In this document: piece by piece, positions 3,131-64,000 of the stretch
Layout of the letters: the number at the start of each line of letters is the position of its first letter
Position numbering within the stretch: position 1 is the first letter of the stretch
Origin: Octopus sinensis
Taxonomy: Eukaryota
DNA: 64,000 nucleotides
Assembly (NCBI RefSeq): GCF_006345805.1
Contig: NC_043000.1
Location: 144,584,001 to 144,648,000, forward strand
Direction: 5' to 3'
Position numbers and translations under genes: made by a program
The notes under the pieces: generated by a model
What the model was told of the DNA's origin: nothing
The model's input: only the letters and a program-made list of their open reading frames with translations
Databases searched by the model: none

Positions 3131-3178
3131 CGTCTCTGATGAAGGGATAAATAAAATATCCGGGAAATAGCTGTAAAA
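3131..3178 (+). ncRNA. Degenerate PLE-type hammerhead motif at the end of a repeat segment (~2540-3240) abutting (TA)n
   Basis: tct-CTGATGA-agggata...tatccgg-GAAA-tAGCTgta, with a palindromic AGCT in stem III. Several pairs are mutated. Confidence 0.45.
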
Positions 3179-3599: not shown

Positions 3600-4436
3600 T
3601 TTTCATAGTTTCTAACAATATTTTACAGTAGTGGTTCTTTTTTGTGGATGGATAAAGTGAAATTTTATCACAATGCATTGCCCTCCAGTTCTGATGTCTG
3701 TGGATTGTACACCTATGTCTTATCGACATTCATGTTGATCCTATATAGTTTTTATGGCAGCTCAAACATCTAATTACATAAATGAGGTTTCCATAGTTGC
3801 AAGTGAAGTTGGATTTAAATTTGAAATGTTTGCACTCGTCTAAAATAGAATTCTGATCTGTCCAAAAGATTGGGGCATGTTTTTTGTACTCTTGCATCCG
3901 TTATTCTTAAGAATAATTTAGTATTTGTGAGGATCTTCTTTAATGTCTTTGGTTGTTTACTGCTTTTAATAATCATTACAAATACGTAAAATTCCCTTCA
4001 GTTTGGGGTCCTTATGAAGTATTAGAAGATTTTGGACAATGATGTTAAAGGCTTCTTTTTTTCTGGGGTCGTATGTGTAAACATAAGTTAGTGCCTTTAG
4101 AGTAGATGTGTTATTGTGTTCGACTTTTCTTAATATAATATTTTTATGTAATGTATGATCCTTTCATTTATGAGTTGAATTGAGTAGTGTCTGTCCTGAA
4201 GGACGTTTTTAGGCTCTTGCTATCTTAGTTCTCTGGTATCTTTTTCGAACACTCTGGTGCAGATCCTTGTTGCACAGTTCAAGGAGTTATTTGTTTTGAT
4301 ATGTCTCGGGTGGCATGACCAAATAATAGATACTGTTTAGAGTCTGTGGTTTTGTAAAAAATGTCCGTTTCAATTAAAAAAAATAAATTTAACCAATATG
4401 TCTAGGAATGACAGTTCCTCTTGGTTGTGTTCCAAT
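3600..4436 (-). pseudogene. Penelope-like element fragment (RT C-terminus/thumb plus C-terminal GIY-YIG), Neptune-like
   Basis: Manual translation across frameshifts gives HNQEELSFLDILVK, IETDIFYKTTDSKQYLLF, CHPRHIKTNNSLNCATRIC and NFTCNYGNLIYVIRCLSCHKNYIGST. Confidence 0.8.
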
Positions 4437-4699
4437 ATATAAAAGATTACAGATGTACCTCCCCTTTACTGAAAAATACCTTGGTTACCAATTTTCCCTC
4501 CTAGCAAACAAAATGTCTAATTCAGAATTACATCCAAAATTCAAACTTTGAAAAGCAATAGCGAAACTGGTTATTATTTTGGAAGATAATACTTTTCTAT
4601 TATGATTCTAATATATTCTTTAGCCTTGTAAAACAAATATTCAGTGGTTTTTCAATTTATTTATTTCCGTATGTGTATACATATATAAGTGTGTATACG

Positions 4700-6149: not shown

Positions 6150-6543
6150 GGCGCAGGAGTGGCTGTGTGGTAAGTAGCTTATTTACCAACCACATAGTTC
6201 CAGGTTCAGTCCCACTGCGTGGCACCTTGAGCAAGTGTCTTCTACTGTAGCCTCGGGTCGACCAAAGCCTTGTGAGTGGATTTGGTAGACGGAAACTGAA
6301 AGAAGCCCGTCGTATATATATGCTTGTGTGTGTTTGTGTGTCTGTGTTTGTCCCCCTAGCATTGCTTGACAACCGATGCTGGTGTGTTTATGTCCCCGTA
6401 ACTTAGCGGTTCGACAAAAGAGACCGATAGAAGTACTGGGCTTACAAAAGAATAAGTCCCGGGGTGGAGTTGCTCAATTAAAGGCGGTGCTCCAGCATGG
6501 CCGCAGTCAAATGACTGAAACAAGTAAAAGAGTAAAGAGAGTA
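6150..6543 (+). mobile_element. Full-length tRNA-derived SINE, family A (octopus-type)
   Basis: A-box-like tggctgtgtggtaag, B-box-like ggttcagtccc, internal (TA)/(TG) stretch, and tail ggcggtgctccagcatggccgcagtcaaatgactgaaacaagtaaaagag. Near-identical copy at 55859-56385. Confidence 0.9.
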
Positions 6544-8023
6544 ATGGACTTGAGTTTAAATAAGGACAGAAATAAACGAGTAAAGAACGAATATATAGTG
6601 GATGTGTTTATTTGGTAATAATAAAAAAAAGGAAACACAAATGACCATCTCGATATAAAAATAGTTTAAGTTTCAATTCACGGATCCACATCAGCAATCT
6701 TACAACATAAATTAAAAAACATAACAAAGCAAAAGTATTTATAAAAGGAATTTTAAAAATTCATGCTCATGTTCAAGATTTCATTCCTATACTTTTATTT
6801 TTAATCGCATTTTTAATTTCCTTTTGTAAGAGATTTCGTTTATCCACCACTCGTTTATGTATATTATTTTTTTTTTAAATAGATTTGGCAAGAACTTCGA
6901 AGTTTCGACCTGTTGATCCATCGTTGGACTGATAATAAGGCTTCAGTCAAGGTCACCGTTAATATCTTCGTTTTAGAGAATAATAAAAATGTACTGTACA
7001 AAAATTATTTAGCAATCCTGCATTTAATGTAAAATTATTTTTGTAGCACGACGGACGCACATATATGCATGTATGTATATCTATATGTATCTCTCTTTCT
7101 TTATTACACTATATATATGTGCATATGCGTGTGTATGTGCTAGTGTGTATGTAAATGCACGTAAATGAATGGCCATGTTTATCAGAGCAAATAGGTACCG
7201 ACATATATATCTGAGAAGTACACACATCAAATATATACATGCACCTTTATACAAGTTGTGTACGTAAATACCTGTTGGAAATTAACTATGTTCCCAGTAC
7301 TCTCATTTCTTAGAGAGCACATTTACATCTAACTACATAAAGGATGGCGTCTTAAAATCTATAGATATCTTGCGTAGTATAACTTTGAATCAAAAGCCTG
7401 TTATGGCATTAATAATTTTATTAATTAAATAAACTTTATGTATAGATGTGCATGGCACCTGCAAAAACCTGTCTTTATCATAGCGTGTCCTGGCGCTATG
7501 TACGTGTTCATATGAATGTATGCTTGAGGTTGTTTTTAAATGTATATGTGTGTATTTTTTATATACGTCTGCGTCCATTTCTCATACAACATACACACGC
7601 TCTTCCACACATGGATATATATATATACATATTCGTATATAGGCACGTAAATATAAACCTACATACACGCATACAGTAACATTTAGAGACGCGATTTTAA
7701 TTAAAAATTAAAATGTAAAGTATTAGTTTCCAGTTGCATGTTTTAAGTTCTCTATTTAACTGAGGAAAACATTTAGGTGACTTAGTGCATTCGTGATTGA
7801 ATTAAATATCAGTCACACAATCATATTTACAGAAAACCGATAGTCATTTTTTCTTTCTTGTATCAATCCCAATACTAACAAGTTTATTCAACACTAGCAT
7901 CTATATCTCAACTAATGCTGCTACACATGTCACTCATTCTCTCCTTTCAATTCATTCCCTTTAATTTCTCCCCCCTTCCTCTTTCTCCTCCTCACATTCC
8001 TCCCCCTCCTCCTCCACCTATTA

Positions 8024-24678: not shown

Positions 24679-24742
<64 letters not shown>

Positions 24743-25191
24743 GAGTGAGAGAGCAGTTCATGCCATCAACGTGACACTGGGGTAAAATATACGAAGCCCA
24801 ATATACCCATCATGACTACCGTCTGATCAGGGTACACCAGGCACATGCATCACAACCATATGTGCGCGACATGGTGATCTCATATCAAGATAAACAGCGC
24901 ATGACCTTGCAGGTGGGGCCCAGTTAGAATTTTCTTCAGGTTAAGTAGCCCATCCCGCTCAAAAGGTCCCTGAATAAGGGTTGTTTAAGGATGTTGAAAG
25001 AACCACCCATGTTTCCAGAGGTGAATTATTCAAACCCCAAATAATCCCTCTCAACACATGGCTATGATGCTCCCCCACTACTTCTGCTCGTGATCAGAGA
25101 TGCACATATCGTCAGCCACTAAAGGACATGCTCAACTGGTTAAGGTCAAACAACTGACAAGCAAATCTGTGGTATTGAGCAGAATATTTGC

Positions 25192-25235
<44 letters not shown>

Positions 25236-25746
25236 GAGTGAGCGAGCAGAGCATGCCATCGAAGTGACACTGGGGTAAAATATACGAAGCCCAGTATACA
25301 CATCATGACTACCCGTCTGATAAGGGTACACCTGGCACATGCATCACAAACATATTTGCGCGACATGGTGATCTCATATCAAGATAAACAGCACATGACC
25401 TTGCAGGTGGAGCCCAGTTAGAATTTTGTTCAGATCGAGTAACCCATCCCGCTCAAAAGGTCCCTGAATAAGCCTTGTTTAAGGATGTTGAACGAGACAC
25501 CCATGTTTCCAGAGGTGAATTATTCAAACCCCAAAGAATCCTTCTCAACACATGGCTATGATGCTCCCCCACTACTTCTGCTCGTGATCCGACATGCACA
25601 TATTGTCAGCAACTAAGGGACATGTTCAACTGGTTACGGTCAAACAACTGACAAGCAAATCTGGTATTGAGCAGAATATTTGCTGTAGCCCATCTTTAAT
25701 AAGAAGACAAAACAATGTACATGATAACACTTCCAATCAGTTAAGA

Positions 25747-38297: not shown

Positions 38298-40500
38298 TTT
38301 AAAAGCCAGATAAGTGTAACGCCGCCAATGGGGGCATCGAAAAGCCGACTGTAAGAGCCCGTTTACCATCCGGCCTCTGGCAAACAAAATATGGAAGAGT
38401 TCGGAGACACAAAGGTTACACTGTCTTCTGCCCCTATCAAATGGGAGGGCCACCGACAAAATTGACCATTCCAGCCTGTAGCTTAAGTTCGTATCCTTCA
38501 GTCGCCATATTAGCTTACTGAGTCCCGTGGTCTGGCGCTTGTTCACGTCCCGAAAAGTTGCGTAATGATTGGAGACACGCAAAGACATCTTGAGGATGAT
38601 GCCCCTACATAAGTGAAGACATCTGAGTCCGTGTAAACCTTGCATTGGTAGACGGCGTTTTTGATCTTGGAGTTCGCCGACGTAAATCTTAATCTGCTAG
38701 GATTAGTTTCTGAAATTAGAACTGCGTTCCTGTCACTATATTCGTTCCGAGACCTGCAGCCGCTTACTACTCTATTTTCCACTACGTCACTATTAACTAT
38801 AGGAATAACCCCTGATTCTCCACTATCTATCAGAGTACTGTCAATGCTAGTGCCCGTGGTGCTGCTATTGCGGGAAATGATGCTGGGGTTGCTATGGGGC
38901 TCTCTACCCTACTCCTATTGTTACCGTCAACCACAACACCCCATTTATAACTATACCCCTAGTGGGTACTCCCTGGCTGGAGCCGAGATTATGTGTCACT
39001 GTACTGGCTCTCATATCATTATTACTACTATAATTATTCCTACTGAGCATTAAACCGGGAGCGGAAGAGGCTGTGCCTCCGGAAAAAGGTGATAGGGTCT
39101 TAGTAAGTAGCCTATTATTATGGGAGGCGATTATCTGGGCGAGGTTTTTAGTGTTGGAGAAAGCTATCCTAACTTTATGTGAGTTAACCGTGGAGTAATA
39201 TTTGGAATTTCTGGGGAAGTTATTGGCGATGGCTTGTCTAAACAAGAGGGGGAGGTTAGTTCTAATCTGCTTACCAAAGGGGATTACAAACCATATATGC
39301 TTATTCCTATCAGTGTGATGGGTCGGGACGCTAGCTCTCGCACTCTGGTGGGTGATTCTCGGATAAATAACGGGTCTTGGGTTAGTGTAAGACCTCCCGA
39401 CCGATAATTATCCTTGTTCGCTAAATTAAATGCGGGAGCGACTACCCCGGCATCCGCCGCGCTCCCGTCCTTACTTAAAATGTTAATGTTATTATATACG
39501 GCCCTATCCTGATGACCGAATGATGGCATCGGAAGGGCCGGATCAATATAAATTACCTTCTGCCTATAACCGGCCTTGGACAGTGCGGCGTTATAAAATT
39601 CCGCTTTCTGCATAAAAATATCGGCACTGGCGGACAAGCCAGACAATCTTAGAGAGATGTTTTTAACCAAATTGTCTGTTACGGTTTTGGCATGATTTGA
39701 GAAGACACTGACATACTTCAAATTAGTGGAAGGCTTATGGTAAGGGCAGTATGAGTCGCTATTAAGGTTAAGTGTAACGTCTAGGAAATTAGCCTTGGTG
39801 AGTTCATTATCAAAAACTATACTCATGCCCATTCTATTAAAAAACCTAGCTAACCTGCTCTTAGTTTTCTGCACTATTCTGTTCGTGGTGTTTTGCAGGT
39901 AAAACAGACAATCGTCACGATACAGGCCGCCCGCGATCTCCGGGAATTGGTCGGACAATTCGTAGAGAATATATATACCGACTAAATCGGCTATCTGCGC
40001 ACTATCCGAACTACCCATAGGCACATCAAATTCATTGGGAGTATTTTTACGGATCCACAACTTATTATCAAACTTAATAAACGATTTCCTGGCAACTAAA
40101 ATGATATCTATCTCTTCTCTGGTGAGGCCAGCCTTGTTGTGAGCATGCCAGAGGGCCTTATTTAGCACACTAGGGTTAATCGAGGGGTAGAAGCTGGCGA
40201 TATCAAACTGAATGAACCTAGTACGGTTCTTATTGGGGATGGAAGAGAACCACTTCACTACCTGGGAGGAGTTGGCCCAGAGGCTGAGCTTCAGCTTGTT
40301 TACTAAACTAGGATGTATTTATCTAAAATGTACTTACTGATTATCCCGATATCAGATCTAGCAGGGCATATGAGTCTTAGCGCTGGGTTGGTGTGGAAGT
40401 TAGGCTTATGGTCCTTCACTATAAATCTGGGTTGCTTGGGGCTAAGCGGCTGAGTTCTCATTTGAATTCGGTGTTTAAATATTATTTCCTTAATTTCCAA
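38298..40500 (-). pseudogene. PLE RT + GIY-YIG ORF, 5'-truncated, several frameshifts
   Basis: KDHKPNF..RLICPARSDIG, FIQFDIASFYPSI, FDVPMGSSD, GLYRDDCL, NFLDVTL, IWFVIPF, AVYQCKV..TYVG, LSKLIWRLK, CNLCVSE, CPH. Confidence 0.9.
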
Positions 40501-40918
40501 GTTTATTCATCTTTCTATTTCACATAATACATACCGCTTCGTCTTAGGAGCATAGTTCGATTTGGTTTTTGCTCCGCCTCTGTTCTGTTTTTGTTTCTCT
40601 AACGGATTTCCTTTTTTCTTCCTGAAGAGAAAGACACAATATGGTCCCATTATTCAATCGGATTTTGGTAATTTGTGCCTTTCGAAACACGTGTAGAATG
40701 AAATAAAACGATTTCTGTTCAATCTGCGTTCAGCTCCATTTCTTCAATTCACCAATAATGTTTTAATTTCAATTATCCGCACCAACGCACGGTTGCTTGC
40801 AACGCAGTGGTGTACCTCCAACCGTGCTGTTTACTGCTGTGATTTTTGCTACTAAGGTATCGGTTAACTTTTGATTAATCTACAACAAGATTATTCATCT
40901 TTCTATTTCACATTATAT

Positions 40919-54932: not shown

Positions 54933-55102
54933 GTAACATCGAAAAATACCTTAGAAATGAGAACCAGTTTCGAAATTTCCCCAAGACGCCTGATGAAAGC
55001 TGGAGGGTATATCAGTCGAAACGTATTATATATGACAAATATCCGTCATATATAAATAATGTAAATAATGTACATAATTCCCCATCTCTTAAATATAGAA
55101 CT
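54679..55102 (+). mobile_element. Fold-back element: inverted HHR arm, tRNA-like head, (AAT)n, HHR arm, 3' extension; 12-bp TSD
   Basis: TSD ATAAATGTTAAA at 54667-54678 and 55103-55114. Arms 54679-54812 and 54942-55059. Head 54814-54875. Confidence 0.85.
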
Positions 55103-55858: not shown

Positions 55859-56385
55859 GCACAGGAGTGGCTGTGTGGTAAGTAGCTTGTTTACCAACCA
55901 CATGGTTCCAGGTTCAGTCCCACTGCGTGGCACCGTGTGGTAAGTAGCTTGTTTACCAACCACATGGTTCCAGGTTCAGTCCCACTGCGTGGCACCGTGT
56001 GGTAAGTAGCTTGTTTACCAACCACATGGTTCCGGGTTCAGTCCCACTGTGTGGCACCTTGGGCAAGTGTCTTCTACTATAGCCTCGGGCCGACCAAAGC
56101 CTTCTGAGTGGATTCGGTAGACGGAAACTGAGAGAAGCCCGTCGTATATATGTATATATATACGCGTGTGTGTGTTTGTGTGTCTGTTTTTGTCCCCCTA
56201 GCATTGCTTGACAACTGATGCTGGTGTTTTTATGTCCCCGTTACTTAGCGGTTCGGCAAAAGTGACCGATAGAATAAGTACTGGGCTTACAAAAGAATAA
56301 GTCCCGGAGTCGAGTTGCTCGATTAAAGGCGATGCTCCAGCATCGCCGCAGTCAAATGACTGAAACAAGTAAAAGAGTAAGAGTA
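55859..56385 (+). mobile_element. SINE family A with triplicated 62-bp head
   Basis: Repeat units start at 55873, 55935 and 55997. The remainder matches 6150-6543. Confidence 0.9.
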
Positions 56386-61059: not shown

Positions 61060-62234
61060 GTACATAAATACATGCATACATACTTGTGAATGGTGACATA
61101 TCCATTCTTGAAATGTGTGCATAAACAGTATAATAACTAACTTAGTAGTAACGACAACAATGCCTCCGTTTTGAAAGAATTAACCTGAAATGTTATGATA
61201 TAATGCAATAGCATACTAAGCGTTTCATGGTTTGGGTATAGAACTGTGAGAGTGGAAATATTGCAAATCTATTTTACAACAGTTGTGCAAAGCACGAAAT
61301 GGTATATGTTATCAATAATGAATGAAACATCAACGAATACATAAATATGATTATTTTCAATTATATATGCTGCTGTTAAATTGAAACATATTTCGATGTA
61401 TAAAAAATTTATATAATATACAGACACTGCATTTATTTCCTATGGTAAAACATATCTACCGTGTATTTTCTTAAAATATTACTATTGTACATACGTATAT
61501 GCTGTATAATTTCGGATGTCTGAAGTAATTATTGCTCAGTCATAAGTCATAATTCATTGTGTCTGTTTTGGTAAATGTTTTATAATAAAATAGCCTTCGC
61601 CGTAGGTAATAGATTTAAACGCTTTCTCACCGAACGAAGTAGATTTTTATTACAAAAATATTTTTTAACAGTAATATTTTATTCCACAAGAGTAGAAATA
61701 TAGAAAAGTATAAGTTGAAAATGCATGGAGAAGAGTTGAAATTTTCCTATTATATTTAAAGTTTCGACCAGTTTGACACTTTACACTGATTTTCAAAATT
61801 TGAGATCGAAAGAAGTGGGTTCTGCCGCAACTGGTTTGCTTCTGATTAGTGTTTTAAGCTTGTCCTTTATTCTTATTTTCTGATGGGGAATATATGGCAC
61901 AAAATATTATATTTTGGGTAGGACTTGACTGATAAAGGATAGTTACGTGACAGGTCTTAGAAATATTTTTATATTCTATGCTACGTCTGTACAAAGGCAG
62001 ATTGAGCTGACCTAGAATATGATGTACATATGTTTTCACATAAGTCTGTGTCAACTTAGTGGAATCTGCCTAGTATCGAGGTTTTATATTTGTTAGCACT
62101 CAGTCTGAATTCATGTGAATGACGTGTTTCGAAGCTTTGGGTTTCCTGTAATAGGAGTGGAGGAGCTGCACTTTGTTGTTCCCAGTTTCTAACCAAAGTT
62201 CAGTATCGTATCACACCTATGTAGGACGTACTCC

Positions 62235-62455
62235 TTTAAGAATACAAAATGCACCAATGATAAATGCATGGTATGTAGGATTAATATTGGCCTTCTCTGT
62301 AGAACTAGAAATGGTGTCTACAGCCTAAAGTGCAAAGAGGTTGCTTGTAAAGACATTAACATGATATACATAGGTGAGACATCTAAGAGCATTGCGGAAA
62401 GACTAAATCAGCTTTCGAGACAATTTGACGACAAAAACAGTCCTCCATACTCTAC
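62235..62455 (+). pseudogene. PLE GIY-YIG endonuclease fragment (possible opposite-strand EN remnant at ~61860-62130)
   Basis: KCTNDKCMVC...CRTRNGVYSLKCKEVAC...IYIGETSKSIAERL. Confidence 0.7.
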
Positions 62456-62525
62456 CAAGATACCAACTTATGTATGTCTGTGGGAGTGTGTGCGTGTGTG
62501 TGTGCGTATATATATATATATATAT

Positions 62526-62572
<47 letters not shown>

Positions 62573-62733
62573 CGTATCTTTGCCATTTCAATATGGCTAA
62601 CCCCTAAGGGTGGATGCTACTATAGTTTTTAGCCCCAGGAGGACACACTCCTCCAGCTGGCCATAGACACACTTTCTGTGTCCTGTCAGTATTTGCAAAG
62701 GGAAGTCATCCTTCCCGTCTTCAACTTATGATA

Positions 62734-62778
62734 CACACGGACTCGAGTTTCGAGGTATTGACCTCTCGTCAGCGTGTG
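62734..62778 (-). ncRNA. Type I hammerhead ribozyme, copy 1
   Basis: cacacg-CTGACGA-gaggt-caat-acctc-GAAAC-tcga-GTC-cgtgtg. All core nucleotides and three stems are intact. Confidence 0.92.
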
Positions 62779-63086
62779 ACAATCATAGTTGTCGGCGAGA
62801 ATTAGATCTCCTTCACAAATACTTATACTTTTTCCAGCGCCCACTGTCGCTGATATTGAAAAAGTGAAATCAAACAATGATAAATATCAAAGTGAGTTAT
62901 ATACAGTAGCGGTAACACATCGTGACGTATTTTTGCCATTTCAATATGGCTAACCCCTAAGGGTGGATGCTACTATAGTTTTTAGCCCCAGGAGGACACA
63001 CTCCTCTAGCTGGCCATAGACACACTTTCTGTGTCCTGTCAGTATTTGCGAAGGGAAGTCATCCTTCCCGTCTTCAACTTATGATA

Positions 63087-63131
63087 CACACGGACTCGAG
63101 TTTCGAGGTATTGACCTCTCGTCAGCGTGTG
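63087..63131 (-). ncRNA. Type I hammerhead ribozyme, copy 2
   Basis: Identical to 62734-62778. Confidence 0.92.
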
Positions 63132-63166
63132 ACAATCATAGTTGCCGGCGAGAATTAGATCTCCTT

Positions 63167-63226
<60 letters not shown>

Positions 63227-63248
63227 TATATATATATATATACACCAC

Positions 63249-63307
<59 letters not shown>

Positions 63308-63310
<3 letters not shown>

Positions 63311-63514
63311 CTAATATAAACATGAACAAGGAGAAAACACAACAACGCGAGGACGTGGAACAAGTATAGAGTTATTGGACTTTCAGGAAAGGAAAGAAAG
63401 ACGGAGGATTTAACGTTTCGATGGGAGCTCTTCGTCAGAAATTTGTAAAAAAGGAAAAGTCCAAGGGAGGGAAGACGGAGAAAGAAAATCGCCAACGATA
63501 CACACGCGGTCACA
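63308..63514 (-). mobile_element. ~200-bp solo pLTR-like element with minimal HHR (63408-63442)
   Basis: attt-CTGACGA-agagctcccatc-GAAACGTT-aaat. Abuts (TA)n. Confidence 0.75.
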
Positions 63515-64000
63515 CATATACGTATGTATATATGTGTATATGCATATATATGTAGTTAAATGGATACGAATGTAAACAAAGAGACTCAGAGAGAGATAGG
63601 TACGTAGGTAATATGAACAGACAAGCACACATACACACATGCATACACAAATGAAGAGTGAAACACATGACATTACACATAATTCACACAAGGCACGTAT
63701 GGAGACACACATCTATACATATCAGATGCACGCACGTAGTTAGAAGGAGAGATACATACACACACAAACGCACATTCATATGAAGAATACATGCATATAA
63801 ACGTACACACATGCATACATATATATATATATGCATATGTATATATATATATGCATACATTCATATATATATATATAGATATGGGCATACATGCATACAT
63901 ATGTGTATGCGCACGCTCTGACACATATACATGCGCACAAACAAACAAAAAGAATGCAGCTCAGAGAACAGACAGAGTCAACGACTATTGAAAAGTTTGT

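Follow-up and report, generated by a model that had tools for sequence, protein, structure and literature searches.

Non-LTR retrozymes of metazoans have been described from coral, mussel and axolotl as units of 150-450 bp (350-390 bp in the mussel) that carry a type I hammerhead ribozyme and no open reading frame (ORF), with a G + C content under 50% and a well-paired predicted fold (PMC7229834, PMC7761336). The units are arranged head to tail as dimers to multimers, have neither a primer-binding site nor a polypurine tract, and are flanked by target duplications that, where present, exceed 4 bp. Expression, cleavage and circles have been shown for these elements, the circular RNAs of the mussel being 350-390 nt (PMC7229834). 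Penelope-like elements (PLEs) are named as likely helpers in both accounts, where, as far as cited here, no repeat motif points to the helper. Vertebrate non-LTR retrozymes lack autonomy as well, range from monomers to multimers and co-occur with intact PLEs (10.64898/2026.07.22.740005). The case made in that preprint is built on co-occurrence and on pLTR homology in Xenopus, and arrays are ascribed to local amplification; it covers 35 genomes, with no mollusc among the classes named in the portion used here. The giant squid genome paper gives 235 matches to the Rfam hammerhead_1 model, with no analysis of them in the section concerned (PMC6962438). For animal retrozymes, both the mobilising retrotransposon and the origin of tandems by reverse transcription round a circle have hitherto been hypothetical.

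PLE insertions show a tail at one end, an inverted 5'-truncated copy and a bias towards microsatellites (PMC8557442). In vitro, reverse transcription was shown to begin at two neighbouring internal sites with the tail between them, both target strands were extended and the protein was a predicted dimer (PMC11167929). The element concerned, the Poseidon element PAc of the green anole, is autonomous, has an AT-rich target, a tail of 30-40 bp and a hammerhead upstream of the start sites (PMC11167929). Some Chlamys PLEs, such as MRC1, are putatively non-autonomous and resemble autonomous families at their 3' end; most Chlamys are without a canonical hammerhead (PMC8557442).

The element analysed here lies in a 64,000-nt stretch of the Octopus sinensis genome (the window). 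It agrees with the coral, mussel and axolotl retrozymes in unit size (353 nt), ribozyme type, lack of an ORF, G + C content (42.8%, under 50%) and predicted fold; in contrast to them it is known from DNA sequence, and its insertion ends carry a PLE tail footprint that these accounts, as far as cited, do not give. It differs from the vertebrate retrozymes in that no homologous pLTR was found and in that its arrays appear to be made at insertion. With PAc it appears to share the two adjacent start sites bounding a tail (43-46 nt here), the AT-rich target, the extension of both strands and the upstream hammerhead, whereas a strict pairing of one short with one long end and arms from a single template are features that the cited text on PAc does not describe. 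The retrozyme class being already known, the existence of the element is no surprise. In the literature searched (Repbase and Dfam lay outside this search) no description of the 353-nt family or of the one-short-one-long rule was found; related families may be listed in the supplements of PMC7229834 or 10.64898/2026.07.22.740005. Because the family is young (about 1% divergence) and numerous, the type of helper and the origin of the tandems can be read from the structure of its insertions.

The tandem unit, its ribozymes and its relatives

The insertion is a partial tandem of 249-104-249 bp in (TA)n, as the first-pass annotation had described it, with repeats at 62569-62817 and 62922-63170 and a period of 353 (Table 1). 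The repeats differ at 4 positions (62578/62931, 62654/63007, 62697/63050 and 62792/63145), none of them inside the ribozyme core. With the monomer read as a circle in six frames, the longest stop-free stretch is 66 codons and the longest ATG frame 38, in agreement with the earlier statement that no credible ORF is present. Each repeat carries on the minus strand a type I core with all motifs and three stems, the two cores being 353 nt apart: CUGACGA (CTGACGA at 63125-63119 and 62772-62766), a 5-bp stem II closed by G-C, GAAA (GAAAC at 63104 and 62751), a palindromic stem III and GUC. The C of GUC is at 63093 and 62740, so that cores and predicted cuts are where they had first been placed. A motif search found the core on one strand only of the unit. 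Positions in the unit are given as q, with q1 the base directly 3' of the predicted cut.

Table 1. Features of the insertion and its target array, in positions of the window
Feature	Position	Strand	Description or basis
Whole insertion	62569..63170	-	602 bp = 1.7 units, single-armed
Upstream type I hammerhead	63087..63131	-	Rfam RF00163 and motifs; predicted cut 63093/63092
Downstream type I hammerhead	62734..62778	-	Rfam RF00163 and motifs; predicted cut 62740/62739
Cut-to-cut monomer	62740..63092	-	353 nt, 42.8% G + C, no ORF, predicted highly paired
3' junction, 'short' fixed end (q171-174) into (TA)n	62566..62572	-	probable reverse-transcription start
Tail segment q172-217 between two fixed ends	62876..62921	-	internal here, terminal in long-ended arms elsewhere
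5' truncation point q276, joined to (TA)n	63166..63170	-	junction mapping
(TA)n target array, 3' side	62507..62568	.	repeat scan
(TA)n target array, 5' side	63170..63309	.	repeat scan

Both cores matched the Rfam model Hammerhead_1 (RF00163) over its full length with an E-value of 2e-05, at a score of 32.2 bits, just under the gathering score of 34. The many Rfam matches to microRNA and snoRNA models were due to TA and CA repeats and all scored below the gathering score. No promoter was found, there being no exact match to the consensus RNA polymerase III boxes, and no tRNA gene within 62000-64000; a tRNA origin was rejected.

Folded as a circle, the monomer reached -115.1 kcal/mol against -83.0 +/- 5.7 kcal/mol for 100 shuffles (z -5.6), with 64% of its bases paired; the opposite strand folded nearly equally well (z -5.1). 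Three extra hairpins had been proposed, of which gccat/atggc and gacac/gtgtc form in the minimum-energy fold and gggaag/cttccc does not; the gggaag segment pairs 5' of the ribozyme instead, extending stem I into a rod. Stem III as a monomer hairpin is unfavourable (+2.9 kcal/mol), as opposed to -10.7 kcal/mol for a duplex of two copies, values that fit the dimeric hammerhead treated in PMC4209133. In the nearest-neighbour ensemble of the 602-nt RNA, stem III had a probability of 0.00 in both monomer and dimer form, and stem II of 0.29. Since neither form of stem III is populated in this ensemble, ribozyme activity is not predicted by folding alone.

The unit is repeated genome-wide: the exact 45-nt core occurs 587 times in the 2.72 Gb searched and its reversed control 0 times, indicating that the repeat is not due to chance. 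All 587 cores span the cut site unchanged. A DNA search gave at least 175 matches, the full-length ones 94-100% identical (best 40 of 1290 candidates scored). The family is dispersed over many contigs, at hundreds of TA-microsatellite sites, and its arrays reach about 10 head-to-tail units. In 36 loci, units diverged by 1.19% between loci, 0.92% within an arm and 0.70% between the arms of a locus; judged by a divergence of about 1% between copies, the family is young. A viroid-like replicating RNA was rejected as an explanation, given the core on one strand only and the hundreds of genomic copies.

Four older subfamilies were found as well: M (88% alike, period 352), B (about 78% alike, period about 357), F (period about 357) and D (period 326-373, with a different stem III). 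Across five subfamilies, 88% to under 78% alike, the period is mostly about 350-360 nt. Covariation in 34 ribozyme regions from subfamilies A, M, B and F, set against 500 shuffles, showed that the stems of the predicted ribozyme have been conserved across subfamilies by compensating pairs. Stem cells were paired in 93.5% (shuffles 89.1 +/- 0.5) and double-sided changes were found in 42 cells (15.1 in shuffles), values reached by 0/500 shuffles in both cases; two of the five covariation measures, which count pairs or types, failed against the shuffles (286/500 and 211/500). The double changes amount to about four events between subfamilies, in the outer stem I, stem I, stem II and stem III, and 19 of 33 rows leave the bottom base pair of stem II open. 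The palindrome of stem III, pointed out in the first-pass annotation, has been retained between subfamilies through a compensating change.

Insertion ends, arms and target

The ends were read in 49 loci, 39 of them top-ranked by similarity and 10 unranked, so that most belong to a sample biased toward copies carrying the full unit. In the 39 ranked loci the outer 3' ends fell at two fixed sites in 60 of 62 cases: 35 at a short site (q171-180 in the BLAST alignments, which extend a few bases into the TA; about q171-174 in fact) and 25 at a long site (q216-220). The remaining two were found in L067, where the end resolves to q217, and in L007, where it is atypical. Outer 5' ends in these loci (n=16) were scattered. 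Genome-wide, there were 213 exact junctions of the short end with TA and 235 matches to the long-end junction (96 forward and 139 reverse, some of the latter counted twice). Counted from the predicted cut, the fixed ends are about 171 nt and 217-220 nt downstream. A start of the insertions at the ribozyme cut was rejected, since the DNA copies start at the two internal sites, a point missed in the first-pass annotation. The window copy has its short end at 62569 and is truncated 5' at q276.

Insertions abut (TA)n, in which a target duplication would not stand out, are 5'-truncated and often consist of two head-to-head arms with both 3' ends outward; by their outer ends, 29 of the 49 loci are two-armed. 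One end was short and the other long in 22/23 two-armed ranked loci and in 5/6 unranked ones (27/29). Both exceptions carry an atypical end, and the same site was used twice in none of the 29. In subfamily M the rule held in 4 of 6 readable two-armed loci, the others being one long/long and one atypical. It was also followed, in all five head-to-head pairs, by a PLE family of this genome that carries an ORF and has a tail of about 56 nt. Fold-back synthesis was discarded as the source of the inverted arm, as the second arm is often longer than the first and extends past the start of the first.

This end pattern is the 'tail' footprint of PLEs. Fixed ends, tail, inverted arms and TA target are found family-wide and support both the retrozyme identity and the mobilisation by a PLE proposed in the first-pass annotation; we consider it very probable that the copies make up a genuine family of non-LTR retrozymes that was active recently and was moved by the machinery of PLEs. 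Spread as a satellite at the DNA level, by unequal crossing-over, gene conversion or Helitron-type rolling circle with the old ribozyme being incidental, would account for the tandem arrays and for the higher-order duplications of L073 and L078, and unequal crossover has been proposed for the local amplification of vertebrate retrozymes (10.64898/2026.07.22.740005). The copies of the 353-nt family, however, are dispersed, face outward into (TA)n with fixed 3' and scattered 5' ends, and obey a short/long rule in common with a family that encodes a reverse transcriptase. This polarity of the ends largely refutes the satellite explanation, which we hold to be highly improbable.

One haplotype, and probably one template, per insertion

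Haplotypes were compared in 45 loci, with L007, L062 and L066 omitted as composite and L241 as a duplicate. Position q66 (71 A, 62 T) was uniform in all 39 loci with at least two informative units (3000 shuffles: mean 12.2, maximum 22) and the same on both arms in 22/22 loci (shuffles: mean 5.0, maximum 12). The same was seen at q253 (uniform in 26/26 loci, 14/14 across arms) and q298 (29/29 and 15/15), and q285 was uniform in 26/27 loci of the first sample. There were 16 haplotype classes in the 45 loci, some of them private to one locus and present on both its arms (L067, L011, L238); the rare variant 169T, for instance, occurs in each of the 6 units that L067 has on its two arms. Among 177 variant cases, 109 concerned a single unit, 54 all units and 14 some of the units. 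Twelve of these 14 sit in the long arrays L073 and L078, whose periodic variant patterns suggest that they were duplicated after insertion or were misassembled. In a sample chosen for full units or cores, 69 of 74 arms crossed the cut site, 33 of them twice or more and up to 10 times.

A variant that is fixed in all units of an insertion requires a bottleneck of a single unit followed by renewed multimerisation, and the period kept in five subfamilies, although every copy is 5'-truncated, requires that multimers be built anew from a single unit. Both needs would be met by reverse transcription round a circle. The units of an insertion, on whichever arm, are likely to derive from a single, probably circular, RNA.

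Our preferred reading, with a probability of roughly 0.65, is a non-LTR retrozyme that a PLE protein, acting in trans, copies from one predicted RNA circle of 353 nt. A tandem copy would be transcribed, and two ribozymes, probably paired via the palindromic stem III, would excise the 353-nt monomer, which a host ligase would close into a circle. The PLE endonuclease would then nick both strands of (TA)n, and the two DNA 3' ends would both prime reverse transcription on one and the same circle, at q171-174 in one case and at q217-220 in the other; the two start sites may represent one per subunit of a PLE dimer. Synthesis would proceed round the circle and halt at variable points, after which the two cDNAs would be joined head-to-head, or one would be lost, as in the window copy.

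The main alternative is PLE-driven insertion from a linear RNA, either an uncut multimer transcribed from a homogeneous array or monomers that were cut and then linked through template jumping, with the ribozyme trimming 5' ends or serving the PLE protein. We regard linear templates as unlikely on balance; the uncut multimer is nevertheless a real rival. For a PLE in vitro, the ribozyme is dispensable and uncut RNA was used as main substrate (PMC11167929), and 8 of 9 frog retrozyme dimers were without cleavage (10.64898/2026.07.22.740005). A homogeneous source array would yield homogeneous daughters and explains any one insertion equally well, and L073 and L078 show that local higher-order duplication takes place. 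In addition, 5' ends are in excess just past the cut site: 12 of 74 arms end in q1-25 (p 0.006, for a window picked post hoc), 2 of them within 3 nt of the cut, an excess that may be due to templates of cut, linear RNA or to stalling within the long stem. On linear templates, however, copies would shorten with each generation unless multimers were rebuilt, yet the period has been kept in five subfamilies, and variants present either in all units or in one (163/177) speak for a single-unit bottleneck. The cut site left unchanged in the 587 cores and the stems kept paired by compensating changes also argue against a linear template.

None of 24 sequencing runs listed as containing the unit is recorded as RNA, which speaks neither for nor against expression. 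Of the four examined (organism labels A, C, A and D), whose contigs showed no ends of molecules, run X6, whose status as RNA is guessed, gave the unit as a single contig of 383 nt (353 + 30) with a depth of 139. In its seven differences from the window copy it agrees with the family majority, with 66T and 253A in addition; this haplotype is also present in genomic loci. The contig would correspond to a closed loop in the assembly graph, but tandem DNA or a multimeric transcript would yield such a contig just as a circle would, and the support it gives to the RNA circle is weak.

With more reserve, and as a possibility we hold slightly more doubtful than not, a lineage of small ribozyme-bearing RNA circles may have parasitised PLEs in at least five waves without ever being a terminal repeat, its insertions recording a dimer-on-one-circle mechanism whose short/long rule would be general to PLE integration. 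If so, a PLE dimer would take hold of one circle, and at either end of the cut (TA)n one of its subunits would prime at a fixed start site of its own and then roll round the circle; a general short/long rule would explain why PLEs have a tail at one end only. The family supplies a 353-nt template, mapped start sites and a defined target, with which the rolling-circle and helper hypotheses become directly testable, and the short/long and one-haplotype rules constrain models of PLE integration.

Penelope-like elements in the same genome

PLE protein searches, in which the best 150 candidates were scored per query, found younger PLE families with ORFs of 781, 775, about 900 and 960 aa. The first three have a cysteine motif before GIY-YIG, a feature given for Neptune and Nematis (PMC8557442), to which they would be assigned by this motif. 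By BLAST or profile, none of the four shares sequence with the unit. The remnant of GIY-YIG next to the insertion (62193-62441) was rejected as helper, being part of an old PLE, now broken, with a 3' end unlike the unit. Older relatives of the unit beside PLE ORFs (L047, L034, L132, L153, L157 and L161) were set aside as separate insertions that share TA targets, and the profile matches near PLE ORFs are separate insertions too.

The first-pass annotation had named, as a case against the retrozyme, that the unit might be only the pLTR of an autonomous PLE. In the five PLE families sampled, the unit matches no terminal repeat, and neither BLAST nor the subfamily profile detected homology to their 3' ends; this answers the objection for these five families only. 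An unsampled autonomous PLE whose 5'-truncated ends would make up the copies is improbable. It would fit the presence of all PLE end features, the position of frog retrozymes as sister to pLTRs (10.64898/2026.07.22.740005) and the palindromic-stem-III hammerhead in the pLTR of the 960-aa family, and the search was bounded by the 150 best candidates per query. The unit, however, closes head to tail on itself up to about 10 times, and the five PLE proteins match at 5 of the 49 family loci, at differing distance, in differing orientation and from differing families, none being a shared extension of the unit; a shared linkage to RT or GIY-YIG was thus not found in these loci. A retrozyme served in trans by a PLE remains the preferred reading over a pLTR.

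The window copy was inserted into a microsatellite of the old PLE to which the GIY-YIG remnant belongs; beyond the insertion, the 3' region of that PLE continues after 63520. This PLE occupies 62106-62441 and about 63520-64000 of the window and continues into L242:1-180. It consists of RT and GIY-YIG fragments, one piece of which is inverted, and a microsatellite-rich 3' region with its own tail, and has 3014 first-look candidates in the genome.

Several other PLEs were observed in the genome. L187:1-7260 (also L186 and L188-L190) is a young full-length PLE in partial tandem with the 960-aa ORF; the hammerhead in its pLTR combines the palindromic stem III with a very long stem II, and about 170 nt separate its two fixed ends, far more than in the usual tail. 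The young PLE at L146:1174-4874 and L150 carries overlapping open frames of 479 and 781 aa, where a single ORF is what has been described for PLEs; a canonical hammerhead was not seen in its 3' region. In the young PLE of about 900 aa (L156, L157, L159 and L163), arms lie head-to-head in (TA)n and just one of them bears a tail, of 56 nt; a canonical hammerhead was not seen in this PLE. Another small hammerhead-bearing element is present at L146:350-850 and 6290-6790, in a 1153-bp duplication.

Within the window, 63313-63510 on the minus strand holds another small element, whose hammerhead-like core, at 63438, is minimal; its contig depth is far above that of the retrozyme, so it probably belongs to a very high-copy family. 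Further hammerhead-like cores are found on the plus strand at 3135, close to a PLE remnant at 3691-4462, and at 54989. Another PLE remnant, at 38298-40542 on the minus strand, has 37-51% identity to the 960-aa family. Tandem repeats in the window include a 494-bp unit present twice (24699-25684) and a 62-bp unit present three times (55873-56058).
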